A stretch of 64,000 nucleotides of DNA from a virus (IMGVR_UViG_3300046543_000595:1-64000), one strand, 5' to 3'. Shown: positions 4,235 through 25,567, numbered from the stretch's first letter. The notes: a model not told the origin generated them from the letters alone. A program made the numbers and translations.

Positions 4235-4704
4235 AAGGACACCTGCGCTTCGATATCTTCCGGCGTGCACGTGCATTCGGTCGTCAAGTGGATGGTGCAG
4301 CGCAAAACGGCCGGTAGAACGGTCGGCATGACTCCCAATTCAAAGAGCGATACCAGCGCCGCCTGCGTCACATCCTTCCCGTGCGTCAAGAACATGGCGG
4401 CCAAGGCCGGCGCGTGAAGATCGACCTTCTGCGCGATCTCCTGCATTTTCCTGGGCGTCGCGCGTGCCAGGTGCTCGACAAACAATCCTTTCGTGCCGCT
4501 GCACAGCACCGTCGATTCGCCCGACCAGCCCCGTCCGTTGTCCGGCTCGATCTCCCACGGGTCCACGTTTACGTAGATACCTCGGCGTGACAGACTCATC
4601 GTCTTCATGTACTTCACCGTCACCCGGGCTATTTTGCCCACGGTTCCGCTGTCGTAGCGGTATTCGTCGTTCGATCTCAGTTTCAGGTTCACTAAATTAG
4701 CCAT
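4231..4704 (-). CDS. hypothetical protein, paralog of 3275..3679
   Basis: GGAGG SD; similarity visible by eye. Confidence 0.7.
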   Translation of the reverse strand: MANLVNLKLRSNDEYRYDSGTVGKIARVTVKYMKTMSLSRRGIYVNVDPWEIEPDNGRGWSGESTVLCSGTKGLFVEHLARATPRKMQEIAQKVDLHAPALAAMFLTHGKDVTQAALVSLFELGVMPTVLPAVLRCTIHLTTECTCTPEDIEAQVSL

Positions 4705-4719
4705 CAGGTCCTCCAAAGA

Positions 4720-4804
4720 GCGGTTTGATTTGGTGCGCGATTTGGGACGCGCCACCGACCGCATTCCGGACCGTCCTCGCCGAGAAACGGTCCGCCCTCT
4801 GCGT
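4720..4804 (-). ncRNA. twister ribozyme-like RNA, copy 4 (variant GAA at the cleavage site)
   Basis: GCAGAGGG-[CGGACCGU...ACGGUCCG]-GAAUGCGGUC-[GCGCG UCCCAAAU CGCGC]. Confidence 0.7.
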
Positions 4805-4805
4805 T

Positions 4806-5297
4806 TTATCCCTCGGTACCACCTCCTTCGTCCGTCGTTTCAGCATCGTAGTGCATCTGCGCCCGCGACAACGCCGTTTCGAAACTCCCGTATTCCTCCG
4901 ATTCCCTGTCGCATAGGTGCATCAGATCGGCCAGAAGATCGCAGATCGCGTCTCCGGCATCCACTCCCGTGGAGTCCATGAACACCTTCAAGGATTGCTC
5001 TGCCCATTCGGCCCGCTCCGGATTCATGTCGTCCGGGTCCGGCGGCAGCCCGGTTTCATCGTCAACTTCCCGGGTTTCCGGTCCTTCAACGGTCGTCGGT
5101 TCGTTTAGAAGACCGTAGCCTTCACTGATCCATTGCCCCATCGCGCCCACTCGATCCACGTACTCAGGCGCATCCGTGTAAACGTCCTGTGAGCCAAGGT
5201 TGACGATCTCTGCCAGGATCTCCCGCATTGAATACTTACGATTGGCTTCCGGGCGTGTCGGTGGAATGTAGTCGTCGTCATCCATTTCCTTATCCAC
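4806..5297 (-). CDS. acidic hypothetical phage protein
   Basis: ORF; C-terminal N-ERAEWAE...DLLADLMHLCD...A-MHYDAE motif. Confidence 0.65.
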   Translation of the reverse strand: MDKEMDDDDYIPPTRPEANRKYSMREILAEIVNLGSQDVYTDAPEYVDRVGAMGQWISEGYGLLNEPTTVEGPETREVDDETGLPPDPDDMNPERAEWAEQSLKVFMDSTGVDAGDAICDLLADLMHLCDRESEEYGSFETALSRAQMHYDAETTDEGGGTEG

Positions 5298-16001: not shown

Positions 16002-16379
16002 ATGGACAAGACAACTTTTATTAGAATTCCAAACGTGCCGCGCCGTGTCCGGTATATCCGCGACCATCCGGACTTCAATGTCCATTCGATCGCGAGTTTC
16101 TGGTGCGGTGTTGCTTCGGCGGACGAGGAGATCCATCTTTCGACGGTCATGGCGCTGGTTGGGGCTACGAAGGAAAATCCTCTCGCATTTACAACTCGGC
16201 ACAATGGTATCGAGGTCGAGTTCGCTCGATATCCGAACTGTCTTCCGCTCTCGATCGCTAAAGCCGTCATGCAGACGGTAGAGATCGCGTCCGGAGTGAG
16301 CAATCTATTTGCGATGATGCGCGGCCACATGGATGCCATGGTGTCGATCTCGGAGACCGTGTCAAGAGGGAGACTTTGA
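16002..16379 (+). CDS. hypothetical protein
   Basis: ORF in operon. Confidence 0.5.
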   Translation: MDKTTFIRIPNVPRRVRYIRDHPDFNVHSIASFWCGVASADEEIHLSTVMALVGATKENPLAFTTRHNGIEVEFARYPNCLPLSIAKAVMQTVEIASGVSNLFAMMRGHMDAMVSISETVSRGRL

Positions 16380-16380
16380 A

Positions 16381-16755
16381 ATGTTTGGTTGGTTCACGCA
16401 TGCGGTGTTGGAGCTCTGGGCGTTCGAGCGGAAGCGCCCGCGCGCCCGGCAACCCCGCGTCTCGCAGCGCCGGCTGAAGCAGCGGCTCTACTGGCGCGAC
16501 AACGGCATGTGCCGCTACTGCGGTGACAAGGTCTCGTTTGAGAAGGCGACGATCGACGAGGTTGTACCGCGGGTCCATGGTGGGCAGCGCAGGCTTCAGA
16601 ACTGTGTGCTGGCATGCTGGTTCTGCAATCAGGCCAAGGGACCACTCCTGCTCGAGGATCCCGACGATCTGACTGTCGATGGGTTGCGTGCGCGCTGGGC
16701 GTCGCTGGATCGCGTCCGCCAGGCCGAGAGGGATCCGGAAAGGTTGCCACGATGA
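16381..16755 (+). CDS. HNH endonuclease-like protein (catalytic His replaced)
   Basis: RDNGMCRYCG...TIDEVVPRVHGG...NCVLACWFCNQAKG. Confidence 0.8.
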   Translation: MFGWFTHAVLELWAFERKRPRARQPRVSQRRLKQRLYWRDNGMCRYCGDKVSFEKATIDEVVPRVHGGQRRLQNCVLACWFCNQAKGPLLLEDPDDLTVDGLRARWASLDRVRQAERDPERLPR

Positions 16756-18758: not shown

Positions 18759-19581
18759 ATAGCCAGTTGCGCGCGGCACCGCAATTGCCACAGAACTTCG
18801 ATCGTGACTTGTTGACGTGGCCGCAGACCGTACATTTCGGTTTGTACTTCACGGTCACGGCCTTCGCCGCCAGCACCCGGCCAACCTGCCCGCGCAATCG
18901 CAACACGATCACTCGAGACTGGAACTCAAGCGGGAAGCCGGACACCGTATGGAATGTTTGACTACTCTCACTGCCGGGCACGGTGATACCGGCATCACAA
19001 CTATCCTGACTGATCTGTGCGCCGACGTTAAAATTGGCCGATCGTAGGACTCCGGTTTTGCCGCTATTGCCGGTATGTGCGCCATACGATGCTGTGTTAT
19101 TGCACCACGGCTGCGTATCCCACGGCCACTGCTGTACCGGGATGAACTGGATGACCGGAGGCTGACCATGCCAGTACGGGATCGGCCGCTCGTAATAGCG
19201 AATGATCGGTACATCGAGCACCGGTTGAACGCGTTCCGCCCATGCCTCAACGCGAATCAGCCCATCATCGACCTTAGCGCCGCGGTGAGTTTCGATCTGA
19301 TCGGTCCGCTCAATAAACTTGAAGCGATTGCCGGCGAGCAGATTCCCGTTGCGGATGAACCGCTCGAGTTCAATGTCGGAGTTCGGCGCGATCACGAGGT
19401 GCGTGCTCTCGGTCGCGTCTATACCGTCGACCGACACTTTCACTTGCGCGCGGACGGAATTCAGATTCTTGATCAGGATGGAATATTCGGAACCGAAGGG
19501 AAGGGTGACCGTGCTGTCGATCTCGCGAAGCACCTTGCCGCCGCATTTGACGACGACGACGAAATTTTCCTTAAACGTCAT
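18757..19581 (-). CDS. hypothetical protein with C-terminal double Zn-ribbon
   Basis: LPFGSEYSI-IKN...LERF...RFKF; CTVCG...FCGNCG. Confidence 0.75.
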   Translation of the reverse strand: MTFKENFVVVVKCGGKVLREIDSTVTLPFGSEYSILIKNLNSVRAQVKVSVDGIDATESTHLVIAPNSDIELERFIRNGNLLAGNRFKFIERTDQIETHRGAKVDDGLIRVEAWAERVQPVLDVPIIRYYERPIPYWHGQPPVIQFIPVQQWPWDTQPWCNNTASYGAHTGNSGKTGVLRSANFNVGAQISQDSCDAGITVPGSESSQTFHTVSGFPLEFQSRVIVLRLRGQVGRVLAAKAVTVKYKPKCTVCGHVNKSRSKFCGNCGAARNWL

Positions 19582-19677
19582 ACTTTTCCTTTCAACAGCG
19601 CACCGGCTAAGCGCTCGAGTGTTTAAAGCCGGTTGAATTTGCAGACGCCATGAACTATAACGTGTACGGAGGTTGAA

Positions 19678-20335
19678 ATGATAGTTGAAATCCGAGCCGC
19701 CGAGGGCGGCGATGACGCCAAATTACTCGTCCTGGATCAGTGCCGCATCTACGCGAAACGATGTCTCAGGAACGGTCTTTGACTTTGCGATCGTCGATCA
19801 ACGGCCAGGTATTATCGTTACGATTATTCGTGGCGCGAAAGAACACATCTTCCAATCTGAATCCGGTGGCCATCGCTGGCAGCGGATCCCACCGACCGAA
19901 AAGCGCGGCCGCGTTCAAACCAGCACCATCACGGTAGCCGTCTTACCCGAACCCACTGCCGTCGAAGATCCATTGAAATTACACGATCTGGACTGGATGA
20001 CTTGTCGCTCTGGCGGTAAGGGCGGCCAGAACGTGAACAAAGTCGAATCGGCGGTGCAGATCCGTCATCGTCCCACCGGTCTGATTGTGCGGTGTGAATC
20101 GGAACGCTCGCAGCTGCTGAACAAACAGTCGGCGCTGGAGATCATGCGGGCAAAGCTCTGGGATGCGGCACGTACGCAGCAGAGTAACGCGATAGCCAGT
20201 GATCGTAAACAGCAGGTCGGCGCCGGCATGCGTGGCGACAAGCGACGGACGATCCGGGTGAGGGATGGGGCGGTCGTCGACCACGTGACGGGACAGCGCT
20301 GGAAATTCGATGACTACATTGCGGGACGATGGTAA
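19678..20335 (+). CDS. short class-I peptide chain release factor (RF1-like PxT), expressed through a +1 programmed frameshift at CTT-TGA-C (19777-19783)
   Basis: GGAGG SD and ATG 19678 give MIVEIRAAEGGDDA...NGL*; the +1 frame continues to ESGGHRWQRIPPTEKRGRVQTS and SGGKGGQNVNKVESAV. Confidence 0.9.
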
Positions 20336-20363
20336 TTGACATCGTCCACAGAACGTGGATAAT
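20336..20363 (+). promoter_or_regulatory. sigma70-like promoter of tRNA operon 1
   Basis: TTGACA-16-GATAAT. Confidence 0.7.
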
Positions 20364-20369
20364 CGAACC

Positions 20370-20447
20370 GTGAACATCACGTACATCATGGACGCACGAG
20401 CCGCCGCGAGACCGTGGCCACCCGTGTGTCTGGGAGGCGGTATGTAG
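20370..20447 (+). CDS. leader peptide 1 (MNITYIMDARAAARPWPPVCLGGGM)
   Basis: GTG sits at the predicted +1 (leaderless); its Ala/Arg/Pro/Trp run matches the downstream tRNAs. Confidence 0.65.
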   Translation: MNITYIMDARAAARPWPPVCLGGGM

Positions 20448-20475
20448 CGCGCGAACTACAAATTCCACTCCTCTC

Positions 20476-20507
20476 AGGCTGACAGCAATGTCAGCCTTTT
20501 TTGTTTT
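20476..20507 (+). terminator. intrinsic terminator (attenuator) before tRNA-Pro
   Basis: AGGCTGACA-GCAA-TGTCAGCCT-TTTTTGTTTT. Confidence 0.85.
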
Positions 20508-20508
20508 C

Positions 20509-20580
20509 CGGGATGTAGGAAAGTGGGTATCCACTCCGTTTGGGGCGGAGGAATCGCCAGTTCGAATCTGGTCATCCCGA
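20509..20580 (+). tRNA. tRNA-Pro(TGG)
   Basis: cloverleaf; CTCCG-TTTGGGG-CGGAG. Confidence 0.9.
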
Positions 20581-20589
20581 CTTGTTTAT

Positions 20590-20660
20590 GGGCCGGTAGC
20601 TCAACGGGAGAGCGTCTCACTTGCAATGAGAAAGATGGGGTTCGATTCCCCCCGTGTCCA
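20590..20660 (+). tRNA. tRNA-Ala(TGC)
   Basis: TCTCA-CTTGCAA-TGAGA; G3:U70 pair. Confidence 0.85.
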
Positions 20661-20664
20661 CTTT

Positions 20665-20753
20665 ACGGACGTGGCCGAGTGGTTGAAGGCTCCGGATTCC
20701 AGACCCGGATGACCGTAATGGTCGCATCGTTGGTTCGAATCCAACCGTCCGTG
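20665..20753 (+). tRNA. tRNA with CCA (Trp) anticodon and long variable arm
   Basis: loop TTCCAGA; variable stem GACC-GTAAT-GGTC; A1-U72 and G73. Confidence 0.75.
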
Positions 20754-20760
20754 CTTCAGA

Positions 20761-20860
20761 TTGGCGGTCCCTGTGCAACCAAGCACGAGGCGCTCCTCTG
20801 GTCGAGGGTGGGGCTGGGTTTCGAATCTCCGGCCCGGCGCTGTTGGGACGGGGCCGCCAA
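20761..20860 (+). ncRNA. structured non-tRNA RNA within the tRNA array
   Basis: closing stem TTGGCGGTCC/GGGCCGCCAA; internal hairpins, one with a TTCGAAT loop. Confidence 0.45.
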
Positions 20861-20867
20861 TGTCTTT

Positions 20868-20941
20868 CGGGATGTAGGAAAGCCTGGAAATCCGTCTGCC
20901 TCGGGCGCAGAAGATCGCCGGTTCAAATCCGGCCATCCCGA
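20868..20941 (+). tRNA. tRNA-Pro(CGG)
   Basis: TCTGC-CTCGGGC-GCAGA. Confidence 0.9.
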
Positions 20942-20945
20942 CTTT

Positions 20946-21020
20946 GCCCGCGTAGCTCAGCCTGGATAGAGCGACGAGCTTCTAACTCGAGGGCCGCAGG
21001 TCCGAATCCTGCCGCGGGTA
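20946..21020 (+). tRNA. tRNA-Arg(TCT)
   Basis: CGAG-CTTCTAA-CTCG. Confidence 0.9.
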
Positions 21021-21035
21021 CTATATACTGGCCGC

Positions 21036-21191
21036 ATGTGGCTAATCATCGAAACCGATTCCACGGTCGAGATCGTCCCCGACTTCGGTCGGCAGCATGT
21101 GCTGGTCGGAGATAACGATGGACCGTGCTGGTGCGTGCCTCGAATCGAAGAGAACGATCGCGATCTCGTCATCCACGAAGCGGACAACTGA
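21036..21191 (+). CDS. 51-aa hypothetical protein
   Basis: read by eye: MWLIIETDSTVEIVPDFGRQHVLVGDNDGPCWCVPRIEENDRDLVIHEADN. Confidence 0.5.
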   Translation: MWLIIETDSTVEIVPDFGRQHVLVGDNDGPCWCVPRIEENDRDLVIHEADN

Positions 21192-21192
21192 C

Positions 21193-21220
21193 TTGACAAC
21201 CGATCGGCAGTGTGCATAAT
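21193..21220 (+). promoter_or_regulatory. sigma70-like promoter of tRNA operon 2
   Basis: TTGACA-16-CATAAT. Confidence 0.7.
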
Positions 21221-21319
21221 CGGATCTGAACTTGATAGGGTTTGCGAATCGTCCAGTTTCACTCATTACCTCTCTGGGAACGGCAGTCGAGCAATCGCTG
21301 CCGACCCGGCACTTATAAA

Positions 21320-21409
21320 ATGCGATTTATAAAACAACACGAACACATCCAGACACGCGGTAGGAATACCGTCGGAATGGATACGTTCGTGCCGGAGGTC
21401 ACCGGGTAA
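21320..21409 (+). CDS. leader peptide 2 (MRFIKQHEHIQTRGRNTVGMDTFVPEVTG)
   Basis: amino-acid set equals that of the 21 downstream tRNAs plus one Pro; followed by an attenuator. Confidence 0.7.
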   Translation: MRFIKQHEHIQTRGRNTVGMDTFVPEVTG

Positions 21410-21434
21410 AGAACCAAAACCCGAATGACCGACC

Positions 21435-21470
21435 GGCCGGAGACACAAGGTTCTCCGGCCTTTCTGTTTT
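21435..21470 (+). terminator. intrinsic terminator (attenuator) before tRNA operon 2
   Basis: GGCCGGAGA-CACAAGGT-TCTCCGGCC-TTTCTGTTTT. Confidence 0.85.
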
Positions 21471-21471
21471 C

Positions 21472-21543
21472 TGCCCCGTGGCGCAGTGGTAGCGCGGCGC
21501 TCTCATAAGGCGACGGTCGGGAGTCCGAATCTCCCCGGGGCGA
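21472..21543 (+). tRNA. tRNA with CAT anticodon (Met or Ile2)
   Basis: loop CTCATAA; cloverleaf. Confidence 0.85.
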
Positions 21544-21616
21544 TGGGATGGTGGGACAATAGGAAAATGCCTTGTTTCCCGAGGAAAATGCCTAACGTGC
21601 AGCCATCCTAGCTTTT

Positions 21617-21689
21617 GCCGCGGTAGCACAGTTGGTAGTGCAGCTGACCCGTAATCAGCAGGTCGTGAGTCCGAATCTCACCCGTGGCT
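21617..21689 (+). tRNA. tRNA-Thr(CGT)
   Basis: GCTGA-CCCGTAA-TCAGC (C33). Confidence 0.85.
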
Positions 21690-21690
21690 T

Positions 21691-21765
21691 AGGTCTGTCG
21701 TTAAGCGGGGCGGTAACGTTCCGGGTTGACCGGCTCGCACACACTTCCGTAAAGCGATAGACCTT
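21691..21765 (+). ncRNA. structured non-tRNA RNA
   Basis: closing stem AGGTCTGTCG/CGATAGACCT; internal CCGG-GTTGA-CCGG. Confidence 0.4.
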
Positions 21766-21767
21766 TC

Positions 21768-21839
21768 GCCGCAGTAGCCGAGGGGTAAGGCGCCGAGTTG
21801 GTATCTCGGAGATCGTGGGATCATTCCCCACCTGTGGCT
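21768..21839 (+). tRNA. tRNA-Thr(GGT)
   Basis: CCGAG-TTGGTAT-CTCGG. Confidence 0.85.
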
Positions 21840-21841
21840 TT

Positions 21842-21902
21842 GGCCCGGCACCATGTACTGATGGAGCGCCCGTTCCGGGTAGTCATCGGAGACGGCTGGG
21901 CC
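21842..21902 (+). ncRNA. small multibranch non-tRNA RNA
   Basis: closing stem GGCCCGGC/GCTGGGCC with short internal hairpins. Confidence 0.35.
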
Positions 21903-21905
21903 TTC

Positions 21906-21978
21906 GCTCGCGTAGCACAATTGGCGGTGCGCCACCCTTGTAGCGTGGAGGTTGCCGGATCGTTGCCGGCCGCGAGCT
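21906..21978 (+). tRNA. tRNA-Thr(TGT)
   Basis: loop CTTGTAG; cloverleaf. Confidence 0.8.
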
Positions 21979-21985
21979 TTTGTTT

Positions 21986-22059
21986 GGGCGGTTAGTTCAG
22001 CCTGGAAGAACGCGGAGCTTACATCTCCGATGCCGCGGGTTCAAATCCTGCACCGCCTA
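21986..22059 (+). tRNA. tRNA-Val(TAC)
   Basis: CGGAG-CTTACAT-CTCCG. Confidence 0.9.
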
Positions 22060-22061
22060 TC

Positions 22062-22135
22062 GCTGTCGTAGCTCAACTGGCAGAAGCATCCGGCTCTTAA
22101 CCGGAAGGTTGTGGGATCGTTGCCCACCGACAGCA
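22062..22135 (+). tRNA. tRNA-Lys(CTT)
   Basis: TCCGG-CTCTTAA-CCGGA. Confidence 0.88.
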
Positions 22136-22208
22136 TGGGGCATAGCTCAACTGGCAGAGCGCTGGATTCTGAATCCAGAGGTTTAAGGTTCGAAGCCTTA
22201 TGCCCTAG
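22136..22208 (+). tRNA. tRNA-Gln(CTG)
   Basis: CTGGA-TTCTGAA-TCCAG. Confidence 0.9.
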
Positions 22209-22212
22209 TCGT

Positions 22213-22288
22213 AGCTCGGTAGCACAACTGGCGGTGCGCGCGCCTTTGGAGCGCGAGGCTGCAGGTTCGAAGCCTGCCCGGGCTGCCA
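22213..22288 (+). tRNA. tRNA-Gln(TTG)
   Basis: CGCGC-CTTTGGA-GCGCG; encoded CCA. Confidence 0.9.
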
Positions 22289-22290
22289 TT

Positions 22291-22364
22291 CGGCTCGTAG
22301 TTCAGCGGACTAGAACATCGGTCTCCGAAACCGAAAGTCAGGAGTTCGAATCTCCTCGAGTCGA
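22291..22364 (+). tRNA. tRNA-Arg(CCG)
   Basis: TCGGT-CTCCGAA-ACCGA. Confidence 0.88.
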
Positions 22365-22369
22365 CTTGT

Positions 22370-22448
22370 TGACAGGTGGCAGACATTTGGTAATGCGCGC
22401 GGCTGTTAACCGCGGTCGATTTGGGTTCGAAACCCAACCTGTCAGCCA
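22370..22448 (+). tRNA. tRNA-Asn(GTT)
   Basis: CGCGG-CTGTTAA-CCGCG; encoded CCA. Confidence 0.85.
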
Positions 22449-22452
22449 AAAT

Positions 22453-22525
22453 GCCCGCGTGGTCTAATGGAAGGGCCCTTGACTACGAATCAAGTGACAT
22501 GCAGGTCCGAGTCCTGCCGCGGGTA
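22453..22525 (+). tRNA. tRNA-Arg(ACG)
   Basis: CTTGA-CTACGAA-TCAAG. Confidence 0.88.
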
Positions 22526-22529
22526 CTCT

Positions 22530-22600
22530 GCCTCGGTCGGTTAGTGGTAAACCATCTGGCTTCCAACCAGAAACTGCGGGTCCGATTCCCGCTCGGGGCA
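22530..22600 (+). tRNA. tRNA-Gly(TCC)
   Basis: TCTGG-CTTCCAA-CCAGA. Confidence 0.88.
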
Positions 22601-22601
22601 T

Positions 22602-22687
22602 TGGGCGCGAAGGAGCTAAAGCAGGGTATAGGTTTGACTCGACCCACGATGAGTGATGAATCGGGTACCTGCCAGGCGTCGCGTCCA
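22602..22687 (+). ncRNA. structured non-tRNA RNA
   Basis: outer stem TGGGCGCGA/TCGCGTCCA; inner stem GCAGG/CCTGC; two short hairpins. Confidence 0.45.
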
Positions 22688-22691
22688 CTTT

Positions 22692-22763
22692 GTGGTCGTC
22701 GTCCAATTGGCAGGATGGGACGTTGCCAACGTCCAGACGCCGGATCATTCCCGGTCGACCACT
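22692..22763 (+). tRNA. tRNA-Gly(GCC)
   Basis: GGACG-TTGCCAA-CGTCC. Confidence 0.85.
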
Positions 22764-22766
22764 CTT

Positions 22767-22840
22767 GGGACCGGCGCATAACGGCTGGTGCGCTCCGCTG
22801 TCTACGGATGCTTTAGGGGGTTCAACTCCCCTCGGTCCCG
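22767..22840 (+). tRNA. tRNA-Asp(GTC)
   Basis: TCCG-CTGTCTA-CGGA. Confidence 0.82.
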
Positions 22841-22843
22841 TCT

Positions 22844-22914
22844 GGCCCCGTCTTCCAAGGGTAGGAACGCGGATTTTCACTCCGCGAATTGGAGCTCGAC
22901 TCTCCACGGGGCTA
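22844..22914 (+). tRNA. tRNA-Glu(TTC)
   Basis: GCGGA-TTTTCAC-TCCGC. Confidence 0.85.
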
Positions 22915-22917
22915 TCT

Positions 22918-22989
22918 GTCGCGTTCGGCTAGAGGCTAGGCCGTCGCCCTCTCGAGACGAAGACGCCGGTTCGACTCCGGCACGCGACG
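22918..22989 (+). tRNA. tRNA-Glu(CTC)
   Basis: loop CTCTCGA; GGTTCGACTCC. Confidence 0.85.
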
Positions 22990-22991
22990 TC

Positions 22992-23066
22992 GCTCGAGTA
23001 ACTCAGTGGTTTCAGAGATCGCGTCTGATAAGCGCGAGGTCGGGAGTTCGATTCTCCCCTCGAGCA
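22992..23066 (+). tRNA. tRNA-Ile(GAT)
   Basis: CGCGT-CTGATAA-GCGCG. Confidence 0.88.
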
Positions 23067-23070
23067 CTTT

Positions 23071-23143
23071 GCCGCGGTAGCTCAGACGGTAGAGCGCGGC
23101 CCTGAAAAGGCCGGCGTCGGGAGTCCGACTCTCCCCCGTGGCA
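23071..23143 (+). tRNA. tRNA-Phe(GAA)
   Basis: CGGCC-CTGAAAA-GGCCG. Confidence 0.9.
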
Positions 23144-23178
23144 CTATGGAAACACATAAACGTCTGGTGATTCACTTC

Positions 23179-23252
23179 GCCAGCCTAACTCAAACGGATA
23201 GAGTATCGGTCTTTTAAACCGAAGGTTGTGGGATCATACCCCACGGCTGGCA
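23179..23252 (+). tRNA. tRNA-Lys(TTT)
   Basis: TCGGT-CTTTTAA-ACCGA. Confidence 0.85.
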
Positions 23253-23255
23253 TAC

Positions 23256-23326
23256 GCCGAGTTCGTCCAGCGGAAGGACGTCTGATTGTGGATCAGAAGA
23301 CTGGGGTTCGAGCCCCCAACTCGGTA
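23256..23326 (+). tRNA. tRNA-His(GTG)
   Basis: TCTGA-TTGTGGA-TCAGA; A73, no encoded G-1. Confidence 0.88.
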
Positions 23327-23328
23327 TC

Positions 23329-23403
23329 GGACCTGTAGCTCAGATGGACAGAGCGCTTGTTTCCTAAACAAGGCTGCCGCGAGTTCGAATCTCGCCAGGT
23401 CCA
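23329..23403 (+). tRNA. tRNA-Arg(CCT)
   Basis: CTTGT-TTCCTAA-ACAAG. Confidence 0.9.
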
Positions 23404-23404
23404 C

Positions 23405-23434
23405 TTGACAGAACCAAACCCGATCGTCTAGGAT
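23405..23434 (+). promoter_or_regulatory. sigma70-like promoter of tRNA operon 3
   Basis: TTGACA-18-TAGGAT. Confidence 0.65.
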
Positions 23435-23442
23435 GACCCATC

Positions 23443-23541
23443 ATGAAAGTGCAAATCTTTCGCCACGTGATCGCTGCTTTAGCCAGTTCTTCCCGCTTGC
23501 GCCTCTCCTCGTTACGACTCAGTTATTGTTCATCTCTGTAA
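23443..23541 (+). CDS. leader peptide 3 (MKVQIFRHVIAALASSSRLRLSSLRLSYCSSL)
   Basis: ATG near the predicted +1; 16 of the last 20 codons are Ser, Leu, Tyr or Cys, matching the downstream tRNAs. Confidence 0.7.
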   Translation: MKVQIFRHVIAALASSSRLRLSSLRLSYCSSL

Positions 23542-23556
23542 ACCAAAACTAAACTC

Positions 23557-23630
23557 GCCCCTGTACGCAAACTGGCAAAGCGATCCCGCTCAAAACGGGC
23601 TGTTTGTGGGTCCGACTCCCACCGGGGGTA
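23557..23630 (+). tRNA. tRNA-Leu(CAA), short variable arm
   Basis: CCCG-CTCAAAA-CGGG. Confidence 0.82.
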
Positions 23631-23632
23631 TT

Positions 23633-23717
23633 GGCGATGTAGACGTGTACGGCGCACGGGCGCTCTGTAAAAGCGTTTTGGGCAACTGACCACTGAGTTC
23701 GATTCTCAGCATCGCCA
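23633..23717 (+). tRNA. tRNA-Tyr(GTA)
   Basis: GCGCT-CTGTAAA-AGCGT; long variable arm. Confidence 0.82.
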
Positions 23718-23720
23718 CTT

Positions 23721-23811
23721 GGAAGCGTGGTCGAGCGGTTTATGACACCGGCCCCGAAACCCGGCGGGTAGTTGAAAGGCTATCTCGTGAGTTCGAATCT
23801 CACCGCTTCCT
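23721..23811 (+). tRNA. tRNA-Ser(CGA)
   Basis: loop CCCGAAA (C33); long variable arm. Confidence 0.82.
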
Positions 23812-23814
23812 CTT

Positions 23815-23895
23815 GGCCCCTTGGTGAAACGGCATACACGCCGGTCTTAGGAACCGGTTCCTTCGGGAGTGAGAGTTCAAGTCTCTCAGGGGCTA
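23815..23895 (+). tRNA. tRNA-Leu(TAG)
   Basis: CCGGT-CTTAGGA-ACCGG. Confidence 0.9.
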
Positions 23896-23898
23896 TTC

Positions 23899-23971
23899 GG
23901 ACGTCTGCCGGAATGGTTAACGGGCTGGGCTGCAAACCCAGTTTTTAGGAGTTCGATCCTCCTGGCGTCCT
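23899..23971 (+). tRNA. tRNA-Cys(GCA)
   Basis: CTGGG-CTGCAAA-CCCAG; U73. Confidence 0.88.
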
Positions 23972-23974
23972 CTT

Positions 23975-24061
23975 GGAGAGATGGCCGAGTCTGGCTGAAG
24001 GCACCGGTTTGCTAAACCGGCAGGCAGTGATGTCTCGCGGGTTCAAATCCCGCTCTCTCCG
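23975..24061 (+). tRNA. tRNA-Ser(GCT)
   Basis: CCGGT-TTGCTAA-ACCGG; long variable arm. Confidence 0.92.
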
Positions 24062-24062
24062 C

Positions 24063-24443
24063 TTATTTGGGCCGCGGTGGCATCGGATCGCCGGTGCGCG
24101 TGGCGACAAGGCAGTCGCCTACCCATGCGGTCAGTTCGGTGTTTTTGCACATGTCGTGCTTGAGGTCGGCAAAGCGGGTGTCGTCTTTCAAATCGTGCTG
24201 CACCACGCGCTGATCGAGCAGCGCCACGGATTGGCCAAGCGCGGCATTCTTCGCGATTTGCGCGTCGTAGGTCTTCATCCTATCCCTTATAAAAAAACCT
24301 ACGATCGTTCCGAGCGTCATCATAATGCTCACCAGAACCGTAAGAACGATATCGATTTCACTATAGTGACTAACGGCTGCGGTGTCCAGTTGCACATGCT
24401 CCTCCTGATCACAGGTCTCAGACCTCTGCGTGTGGACGGACAT
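24063..24443 (-). CDS. single-TM membrane protein (holin-like?)
   Basis: IDIVLTVLVSIMMTLGTIVGFFI followed by a helical segment. Confidence 0.5.
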   Translation of the reverse strand: MSVHTQRSETCDQEEHVQLDTAAVSHYSEIDIVLTVLVSIMMTLGTIVGFFIRDRMKTYDAQIAKNAALGQSVALLDQRVVQHDLKDDTRFADLKHDMCKNTELTAWVGDCLVATRTGDPMPPRPK

Positions 24444-24604
24444 TCATCTGTTGGGTTTATTGTAGGTTAGACGTCAACGCTGCTCGAATGGAGCGGAGAT
24501 TCGGCCGGCGCGCCCGGCAGACCGCGCAATACATCATGCGGACGGCGCCAGCGATGAATTCATAGATCGTGCGGCGGAGATCGCAGCCGGGGCAGACTTC
24601 TGTC

Positions 24605-25567
24605 TTAACGGACGCTTCGTTCATGGATCCTCCAGGTGGCGACGATTTCGTCAAGCATCTCCCGGATGTCGTATCGCGGGCGCCACCCGATCAGCCGGTC
24701 GATTTTAGCGAGATCGGGTTGCCGGCGCTCGATATCGTGGAACTTCGCGCCGAGCGCGGTAGCGCGCGGGACGTATTCAATACTGGACGTGGACTGCGTG
24801 ATTTCCTTGATCAGATCAGCAAGATCGCGGATCTCGATGAAATTCGGAGCTCCGATGTTCACGATCTCACCGAAGGCTTCTGGTGTTCGGGAGAGACGCT
24901 CGAGGGCGTCGACGGTATCGCCGACCCATGTGAACGCGCGCTCCTGCCGGCCGTCCCCGTAGACCGTGATCGGATGTCCGGCGAGCGCCTGGCTGAGCAT
25001 CGTGGGCACGACGGATCCGAGTTCTGGCCGCTGGCGCGGACCGATCGTATTGAACAGCCGGGTAATCACGACCGGGACTTCTTTTGTGGCGAAGCGGGCG
25101 AGTGCGATGAACTCCTCGACGAGCTTGGCCGCCGCATAACCCCAGCGTCCGTTCGGCGAGATTCGGAGATCGTCGGACTCGGAGAGCAGGATCTCTTCGG
25201 AGCGCCCGTAGACTTCGGAACTCGACGTGAGGACCGTCGGTACGCCGCGACTGGCCGCGCAGTGTAGCACGCAGGCCGTGGCCTGCACGTTCTGCTCAAC
25301 GGTCTCGAGCGGCATCTCGAGCACCCGCTTCACTCCGACGATGGCGGCGAGGTGGAAGATGACATCGGCTCGCTTGACCAGAGGCGTTAGGATCGGCGGA
25401 TACTGGGCGGAGCCGAAATGCAGGAGGACGCGCGGAGATTCCTGCAGGTTTACCCGTAGTCCGGTTGATAGGTTGTCGAGGATGTCGACGTCGTAGCCGA
25501 GGCTGACGAGATGGTCGACGAGTGTTGAACCGATAAAGCCGGCACCGCCGGTAACGAGCGCTCTCAT
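24605..25567 (-). CDS. NAD-dependent nucleotide-sugar epimerase/dehydratase
   Basis: VTGGAGFIGS, SSSEVYG, YAAAK, RLFNTIGPRQ. Confidence 0.92.
   Translation of the reverse strand: MRALVTGGAGFIGSTLVDHLVSLGYDVDILDNLSTGLRVNLQESPRVLLHFGSAQYPPILTPLVKRADVIFHLAAIVGVKRVLEMPLETVEQNVQATACVLHCAASRGVPTVLTSSSEVYGRSEEILLSESDDLRISPNGRWGYAAAKLVEEFIALARFATKEVPVVITRLFNTIGPRQRPELGSVVPTMLSQALAGHPITVYGDGRQERAFTWVGDTVDALERLSRTPEAFGEIVNIGAPNFIEIRDLADLIKEITQSTSSIEYVPRATALGAKFHDIERRQPDLAKIDRLIGWRPRYDIREMLDEIVATWRIHERSVR

Follow-up and report, generated by a model that had tools for sequence, protein, structure and literature searches.

Ribosome-mediated attenuators with a leader peptide are known for amino-acid operons of enteric bacteria (trp, his, leu, thr, ilv and pheA), and in the case of pheST, with its pheM leader, attenuation controls a gene of the translation apparatus. 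The genes for tRNAs are usually seen as controlled at their promoters (through growth rate and the stringent response) and by processing. Here, we describe a tRNA array in IMGVR_UViG_3300046543_000595:1-64000, a stretch of 64,000 nucleotides (the window) that forms the first 64 kb of a phage genome of 107,420 bp with 58.8% G+C and a portal protein of the P22/SU10-like type. The tRNA genes of this array fall into three blocks, and each block is preceded by a sigma-70-like promoter (P1-P3) and a short open reading frame (ORF; L1-L3) whose codons correspond to the tRNAs that follow (Table 1). With a probability of roughly 0.7, these leaders act as ribosome-mediated transcription attenuators of the trp/his type that have been placed ahead of tRNA operons.

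The resemblance to the enteric systems lies in the parts: a promoter, a short leader with sensor codons, an intrinsic terminator and an antiterminator that excludes it, with region 2 at the end of the ORF, an arrangement in which a stalled ribosome leads to read-through. By contrast, the enteric attenuators, like all curated leader families in Rfam, regulate genes of amino-acid biosynthesis or transport, whereas the leaders described here precede tRNAs; and where an enteric leader carries a run of one or two amino acids, the phage leaders sample 4-20, with approximately one codon per downstream anticodon. They also differ in occurring in phages and in that two of the three leaders in the window look leaderless. 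The pheST system is similar in that ribosome-sensed attenuation feeds back on the decoding machinery, although its target is a synthetase and a single amino acid is sensed, whereas the phage target would be the tRNAs themselves. T-box elements likewise sense the status of tRNA and gate a terminator by means of an antiterminator, but they bind one uncharged tRNA directly, have no ORF and control synthetase or biosynthesis genes. Finally, phage tRNA arrays have been discussed as compensation for codon usage or for cleavage of host tRNAs, the tRNA of phage T5 that counters PARIS being an example (in the parts of PMC11464382 consulted); such reports share with the present case a large phage tRNA set that backs the host pool, and in those parts they concern the function of the tRNAs rather than the regulation of their transcription.

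At its default threshold, ARAGORN places 31 tRNA genes at 20509-24062, all on the + strand and in agreement with Rfam; a 32nd, a tRNA-Asp with anticodon GUC, is found at a relaxed threshold and gives a weak match to the Rfam tRNA clan. With this gene counted, the phage tRNAs span all 20 amino acids, and the division into three blocks of defined content that an earlier note had read from the DNA is confirmed, with Arg as the only amino acid common to more than one block. The same note had assigned a TTGACA/-10 promoter to every block. This also holds, since all three sites have a perfect -35 hexamer and score 11, 11 and 10 of 12, and only seven sigma-70-like sites of at least 10/12, P1-P3 included, occur in the 107,420-bp genome when its two strands are counted together. 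Between promoter and first tRNA, each block contains exactly one ATG ORF of at least 15 codons, so that a short ORF of 19-32 codons with its own start and stop lies downstream of the promoter and upstream of the putatively regulated genes, as in an attenuator. The peptides of the 25-32-codon leaders given in the earlier note are as quoted there, except that the GTG at 20355 from which it seems to have begun L1 falls within the -10 box. The L1 frame is open also from a GTG at 20370 (25 codons), 6 nt past the -10 hexamer, a start that would make the mRNA leaderless; both this GTG and the ATG at 20388 (19 codons) are plausible start codons. L3, whose ATG is similarly close to its -10 hexamer, is probably translated leaderless, judging by this spacing.

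Table 1. Elements of the three tRNA blocks, with positions in the window
Feature	Position	Strand	Details
Promoter P1	20336-20363	+	Perfect -35 hexamer, 16-nt spacer, -10 matching 5/6; score 11/12
Leader ORF L1	20388-20447	+	19 codons from ATG
Predicted antiterminator, block 1	20428-20479	+	L1 3' end 20428-20437 pairs with 20470-20479; nascent-transcript minimum free energy (MFE) fold, ribosome-mask partition function
Intrinsic terminator T1	20476-20507	+	9-bp G+C-rich stem 20476-20497 and T tract; ends 1 nt before first tRNA
tRNA block 1	20509-21021	+	Pro, Ala, Trp, Pro, Arg; ARAGORN, Rfam
Promoter P2	21193-21220	+	Perfect -35 hexamer; score 11/12
Leader ORF L2	21320-21409	+	29 codons
Predicted antiterminator, block 2	21389-21438	+	L2 3' end 21389-21406 pairs with 21420-21438, three tiers; nascent-transcript MFE fold, ribosome-mask partition function
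Intrinsic terminator T2	21435-21470	+	9-bp G+C-rich stem 21435-21460 and T tract; ends 1 nt before first tRNA
tRNA block 2	21472-23404	+	21 tRNAs for M, T, V, K, Q, R, N, G, D, E, I, F, H; ARAGORN, Rfam; includes tRNA-Asp 22766-22842
Promoter P3	23405-23434	+	Perfect -35 hexamer; score 10/12; abuts last block 2 tRNA
Leader ORF L3	23443-23541	+	32 codons; ATG 8 nt past -10; stop codon 15 nt before first tRNA
tRNA block 3	23557-24062	+	Leu, Tyr, Ser, Leu, Cys, Ser; ARAGORN, Rfam

The codon content of the leaders follows the division of the tRNAs. After the initiator Met, residues of the own block account for 10/18 in L1 (P, A, W, R), 27/28 in L2 and 16/31 in L3 (L, Y, S, C), at six-frame background frequencies of 0.32, 0.60 and 0.22 for the three residue sets (binomial P = 0.034, 1.2e-5 and 2.7e-4); against the two foreign sets, each leader gives P values of at least 0.9. 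Every amino acid of a block is present in the leader of that block, including all 13 of block 2 in L2. The enrichment in regulating codons that characterizes attenuator leaders is therefore found here in an extended form, as the amino acids and anticodons of the downstream tRNAs. The comparison with shuffled ORFs envisaged in the earlier note bears this out: when the leader regions were shuffled with dinucleotides preserved, an ATG ORF of at least 15 codons was present in 1298, 2868 and 682 of 5000 shuffles of the L1, L2 and L3 regions, and the observed own-set value was attained in 7, 0 and 7 of 5000. Among 519 genomic ATG ORFs of 15-45 codons (leaders included), 21, 1 and 2 attained the observed values. 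Under strict wobble, L1, L2 and L3 sample 5/5, 19/21 and 6/6 of the anticodons of their own blocks, a degree of sampling that was matched by 568 of 28,470, 3 of 23,303 and 159 of 22,009 open windows of equal length across the genome. Short ORFs are common, and L1 alone is only nominally significant (P = 0.03); nonetheless, that the whole pattern is a chance coincidence spotted after the fact is barely credible, as the outcomes of the three empirical tests would together be highly unlikely by chance, and the pattern is both kept in a close relative, G004, and recurrent in unrelated sequences retrieved by a search blind to composition.

Two intrinsic terminators, T1 and T2, which did not figure among the observations of the earlier note, lie between leader ORF and first tRNA in blocks 1 and 2. 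Because no promoter fits between terminator and tRNA, the tRNAs of these two blocks can be made only through terminator read-through. In both blocks, a predicted antiterminator would pair the end of the leader ORF with a segment that includes bases of the terminator 5' arm, and the parts of the design all lie within ~170 nt. Since these parts are those of a trp/his-type attenuator, the same type of mechanism is the most likely one for blocks 1 and 2. Host RNA polymerase would start at the strong sigma-70-type promoter and transcribe a leader ORF that samples nearly every downstream tRNA. With aminoacyl-tRNAs plentiful, the ribosome would complete the ORF and cover its last codons (region 2), so that the 5' arm of the terminator (region 3) could pair with the 3' arm and transcription would end 1 nt short of the first tRNA. 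Were any of the sampled tRNAs scarce or uncharged, the ribosome would stall upstream; region 2 would then pair with the emerging region 3, the base of the terminator stem would fail to form and the polymerase would enter the tRNA genes. The outcome would be a demand-driven negative feedback on the supply of phage tRNAs, divided into three amino-acid groups. Whereas the anatomy, the match between codons and tRNAs, its conservation and the alternative pairings were obtained by computation, we infer leader translation, stalling, the kinetic choice of structure and the physiological trigger.

Equilibrium folding was rejected as a test of this switch, being non-discriminating (the terminator was constant in the WIN1, G1_Tyr and G2_ITQ calculations), and nascent-transcript folding was used instead; full-length folds of classical attenuators likewise give the terminator, the choice of structure being kinetic. 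In the nascent-transcript calculation, the RNA extends to the terminator loop with the 3' arm still absent, a ribosome mask holds 28 nt single-stranded, and the output is the probability that the bottom of the terminator arm has already paired with upstream RNA. For WIN1, placing the A site on own-set codons gave a probability of 0.97, compared with 0.44 for the last six sense codons, 0.24 for the stop codon and 0.22 when the ribosome was left out; the corresponding values for WIN2 were 0.85, 0.34, 0.33 and 0.64. A drop from own-set codons to the last six codons was obtained for 10 of 11 leaders of the terminator class from the window, G004 and the huge phages described below. The sensor codons are thus predicted by these folds to be placed such that a stalled ribosome leaves region 2 free, while one that completes translation covers the ORF end.

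A search with the portal protein identified G004, a viral contig of 109,586 bp with a 67% identical portal and 33 tRNAs; a second contig, G005, equals G004 over 10,956 nt and so provides no independent evidence. G004 has the same three tRNA blocks, each headed by a homologous leader, and conservation of the leaders, on which the proposal in the earlier note depended, is accordingly seen in this relative. Blocks 1 and 2 have identical -10 hexamers in the two phages, and blocks 2 and 3 have kept the -35 hexamer; the terminators ahead of blocks 1 and 2 have kept their position with different stems. In the 27-codon L1 of G004, a nine-residue core of own-set residues is kept. Although the order and length of L2 are no longer the same, 22/24 of its residues belong to set 2 (P = 5e-4), with each of the 13 amino acids represented. 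L3 has kept its 3' half, in which 5/8 changed codons are synonymous (judged by eye, as are the other codon comparisons with G004), and 13/30 of its residues are own-set (P = 0.03). Over the conserved parts of the leaders, 23 codons have changed between the two phages; 11 of these changes are synonymous, and of the 12 replacements, 6 exchange one own-set residue for another. Together with the retention of frames and stops, the share of synonymous changes may point to translation of the leaders. In both phages, L1 and L3 begin 6-10 nt past the -10 hexamer, a position that fits leaderless translation and a missing Shine-Dalgarno sequence.

The tRNA complements of the two phages differ in a few places, and the co-variation with leader content that the earlier note had proposed to look for is found in one case. 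The tRNA-Gln that reads CAA belongs to block 2 in the window and to the end of block 3 in G004; L2 carries CAA and CAG in the window and CAG only in G004, where L3 has gained a CAA in its sensor part (the L3 of the window also carries one CAA, near its start). The leaders do not track two further differences, namely one additional Pro tRNA in the window and one additional Leu tRNA in G004. Attempts to extend the comparison to further close relatives returned G004 and G005 only with the L3 pattern, 29 stretches with the L1 pattern (27 without a nearby tRNA, and hence chance matches), and G004, G005 and one distant locus with a conserved neighbour protein; metagenome scans gave none, and blastn of the phage collection gave matches at the level of tRNAs only.

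The same comparison bears on a ribosome-independent switch, in which codon-like triplets in the leader RNA would bind tRNAs directly, as a T-box does. The leader RNA does contain codons for the downstream tRNAs, as such a switch would need. We regard it as very improbable, however: all cases retain an ATG and an open frame, with the stop codon at a constant distance from the terminator, as many as 28 different codons take part, and the codon changes between the window and G004 are often synonymous. Moreover, Rfam families other than tRNA, including T-box and leader families, were absent from 19500-24800 at E values up to 1, and seven related loci gave only tRNA, transfer-messenger RNA (tmRNA) and GOLLD matches, with no T-box, at the gathering threshold.

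Leaders of the same kind occur in distant huge phages. A 216-aa protein with an RF-1 and a partial PCRF domain (peptide chain release factor-like; 19685-20335, +), which ends one base before P1, has relatives with 50-58% identity inside the tRNA regions of G001 (455 kb), G002 (332 kb) and G003 (170 kb). In these three phages, the tRNAs are grouped by amino acid, and several groups are preceded by short ATG ORFs with matching residues, namely Val/Ala/Gly/Asp/Glu/Cys (three phages), Ile/Thr/Gln, Trp/Gln/His/Arg/Asn/Lys, Tyr/Leu (two phages), Pro (three) and Phe (three). Seven of the huge-phage leaders have an anatomy in common with the two leaders of the window that precede a terminator: the end of the ORF is followed after 20-35 nt by a hairpin and T tract, and then, within at most 30 nt, by a tRNA. 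Own-set enrichment reaches P < 0.05 in 7/9 leaders of this anatomy and in 11/16 of all those tabulated, the exceptions among the latter being the three Phe leaders and two others; every amino acid of a block is present in its own leader in 16/16. When nine leader types were compared with nine tRNA sets, the own set had the highest z-score in 8/9, and the diagonal sum was attained in 1 of 200,000 permutations, a test that is not fully blind since the huge-phage leaders had been chosen after viewing lists of ORFs.

A search blind to composition used as its query a degenerate DNA pattern for the five-residue C terminus common to three huge-phage leaders, followed by a stop codon, which ignores the rest of the ORF. 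In the viral collection, 30 stretches matched, and in 17 of these the match was the end of a short ORF with tRNAs within 1.5 kb; 2 of the 17 had been known beforehand (leaving 15 new), 2 are cut by the end of the locus and some are duplicates. The remaining 13 matches have no tRNA nearby and lie mostly within long ORFs. Eleven distinct complete leaders of 18-57 codons, from contigs of widely differing G+C content, were analysed. Each is followed by a hairpin and a U run, and most are preceded by a recognizable promoter. In nascent-transcript folds, the 3' end of the ORF pairs with the 5' arm of the terminator, often with the whole arm, and this pairing is kept across phages despite differing paired sequences (covariation judged by eye). 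The two shortest leaders, ahead of ten or eight tRNAs, consist almost entirely of own-set residues (10/12 and 16/22). The nine leaders of large arrays contain all 20 amino acids in five cases, 19 in three and 18 in one, whereas all 20 were found in 133 of 7535 windows of 48 residues from long ORFs of the same loci. At one locus (L097), the leader-headed tRNA array is accompanied by a GOLLD RNA (226.9 bits) and a tmRNA, at 752-1213 and 4698-5126 (-).

That so many leaders hold all or nearly all amino acids raises the question of which signal is sensed. The same attenuator hardware could respond to general translation capacity or to amino-acid starvation, in which case the match with the tRNAs would merely reflect broad coverage. 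This reading is helped by the five all-20 and three 19-amino-acid leaders among the 11 analysed, by the fact that classical attenuators respond to charging rather than to the amount of tRNA, and by the many codons in L1 and L3 that tRNAs of their own block do not decode: under strict wobble, only 6/18 codons in L1 and 7/31 in L3 are decoded by own-block tRNAs, which is also a point against sensing of the block's own tRNAs. We nevertheless consider it unlikely, because the amino acids are divided among the leaders of the window and of the huge phages exactly as the tRNAs are divided among blocks, and a general sensor needs no such division; in addition, codon choice in the leaders follows the Gln tRNA that changed block.

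Several further observations weigh against attenuation by leader-codon sensing. No Shine-Dalgarno sequence was found at L1, L2 or L3, compared with a GGAG/GAGG/AGGA-type match in 29 of 69 long ORFs of the phage, so that translation of L1 and L3 would need leaderless mRNAs; the start context of L2 is AU-rich, lies ~95 nt from the predicted transcription start and leaves the choice of start codon ambiguous. Set-3 residues are also frequent in the other two frames of L3 (12/29 and 11/32, versus 16/32 in frame), and the enrichment of L3 is partly due to its pyrimidine-rich composition. In G004, L1 is unenriched over its full length (9/26, P = 0.39), and an in-frame ATG upstream of L2 would append ~19 residues outside the set. 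The antiterminator overlaps the terminator 5' arm by 4 nt only in blocks 1 and 2 (much more in the relatives), and in equilibrium folds of the full-length leader with a ribosome mask, the terminator forms at every ribosome position (0.90-0.98 for WIN1). G1_Tyr showed no switch in the ribosome-mask calculation, and for several huge-phage leaders the OFF value at the stop codon varies with the assumed footprint. Nor does a leader precede every block: the Ile/Thr/Gln and Ser blocks of G001 follow protein genes, and the tRNA regions of T5, the classical example of a phage rich in tRNAs, hold no matched leaders, the small coding sequences (CDSs) between its tRNAs being unrelated to them. The runs that carry the window stretch are DNA only, from soil, rhizosphere and root metagenomes, with no RNA run listed.

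Some of these points (the missing Shine-Dalgarno sequences, the lack of a listed RNA run, terminators that are strong at equilibrium and the unrelated small CDSs of T5) would equally suit an arrangement in which ORFs and terminators are separate small units, encoding small proteins or RNAs, with the tRNAs made through leak-through or a phage antitermination factor and the leader composition caused in some other way. Such an arrangement seems quite improbable, since it leaves unexplained the block-by-block match between codons and tRNAs, the retention of composition while sequence diverges and the covarying pairing between the ORF 3' end and the terminator 5' arm. Attenuation gated by leader codons, as proposed in the earlier note, is supported by the anatomy, the codon match, the conservation in G004 and the recurrence in distant phages.

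Block 3 departs from the other two in that no hairpin and T-tract terminator was found ahead of its first tRNA, which counts against an attenuator of the trp/his type at this position. Pairing of L3 with the first tRNA of the block was considered as a substitute and rejected: shuffled leaders attained its duplex energy in 261 of 300 cases, and G004 lacks the complementarity. The L3 region is C-rich and G-poor in both the window and G004 (C 30-31%, G 16%) and folds weakly (-10.7 kcal/mol over 116 nt), a composition that also follows from the codons used. Leader peptides that control Rho-dependent termination are known from tnaC, mgtL and mgtP, and these may be a model for block 3, as L3 is likewise a leader with sensor codons and no intrinsic terminator; they differ in that a role for Rho in block 3 is suggested by the C-rich, G-poor composition alone. 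We tentatively entertain, for this block only, that the leader governs Rho-dependent termination, with a stalled ribosome blocking the loading of Rho, or else the 5' processing of the first tRNA. The missing terminator, the weakly folded, C-rich leader and a stop codon 11-15 nt before the tRNA in both phages speak for this, whereas C-richness is expected anyway from Leu, Ser, Tyr and Cys codons, and block 3 may be a mere co-transcript of block 2, the end of which has no terminator. On balance, this remains doubtful.

Other features of the array and its surroundings were recorded. The ends of the phage contig overlap, bases 1-127 being repeated at 107294-107420, so that the assembly is self-closing. 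Contigs from four DNA runs carry the stretch; those of the phage itself show no differences and are thus uninformative on polymorphism. The tRNA-Trp (20665-20754, +) is 90 nt long with a 5-bp extra arm, which is odd for a class I tRNA; its copy in G004 has 92 nt. Inter-tRNA spacers of 66-113 nt without a tRNA call occur at 20755-20867, 21544-21616, 21690-21767, 21840-21905 and 22602-22691 and may represent small RNAs or the remnants of tRNAs; G004 has no gaps between the first three tRNAs of block 2, unlike the window. Between block 1 and P2 lies a 51-codon ATG ORF (21036-21191, +). An HNH-like small protein (16333-16755, +) is 74% identical to a protein that adjoins the tRNA array of G004. 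The protein with RF-1 and PCRF domains may be part of the same translation-maintenance module as the tRNA array. In the huge phages G001 and G002 (L029, L032, L034), two tRNAs per phage with a CUA anticodon and one with UUA adjoin the release-factor-like gene, which hints at reassignment or suppression of stop codons.

In the literature searched, from which subscription journals were mostly missing, so that older work may have been overlooked, no description of leader-peptide attenuation of tRNA genes was found, in phages or elsewhere; the parts of PMC7412058, PMC3082878 and PMC4810235 consulted contain nothing on it. The mechanism itself is of a known kind, and what appear to be new are the tRNA-operon target, the leaders that sample many amino acids (up to 20) and the spread among uncultured phages. 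We lean, by a small margin over even odds, towards the view that these leaders represent an undescribed attenuator class common on phage tRNA arrays, in which codon test tracks, built per tRNA group or for all 20 amino acids, gauge in real time a failure of host decoding, be it caused by host shut-off, late-gene demand or anticodon-nuclease defence, and switch on exactly the tRNA set that is short; tRNA genes would then be open to control by the ribosome as it reads their codons. Cleavage of tRNAs by anticodon nucleases is a possible trigger, for which the support is no better than for late-gene demand or starvation.

If leader-codon attenuation of this kind operates, the speed of the ribosome on a sampler ORF would set the transcription of tRNAs, a form of regulation that would be novel for the decoding apparatus. 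This would account for how phages that carry many tRNAs avoid expressing them wastefully, and would tie tRNA arrays mechanistically to depletion of host tRNAs, including that by tRNA-cleaving defence systems. The leaders would then be modular codon sensors, the content of which predicts the tRNAs that a phage treats as limiting, and a simple search for a short ORF, a terminator and a tRNA array could annotate a widespread element that is missed by gene callers and by Rfam.

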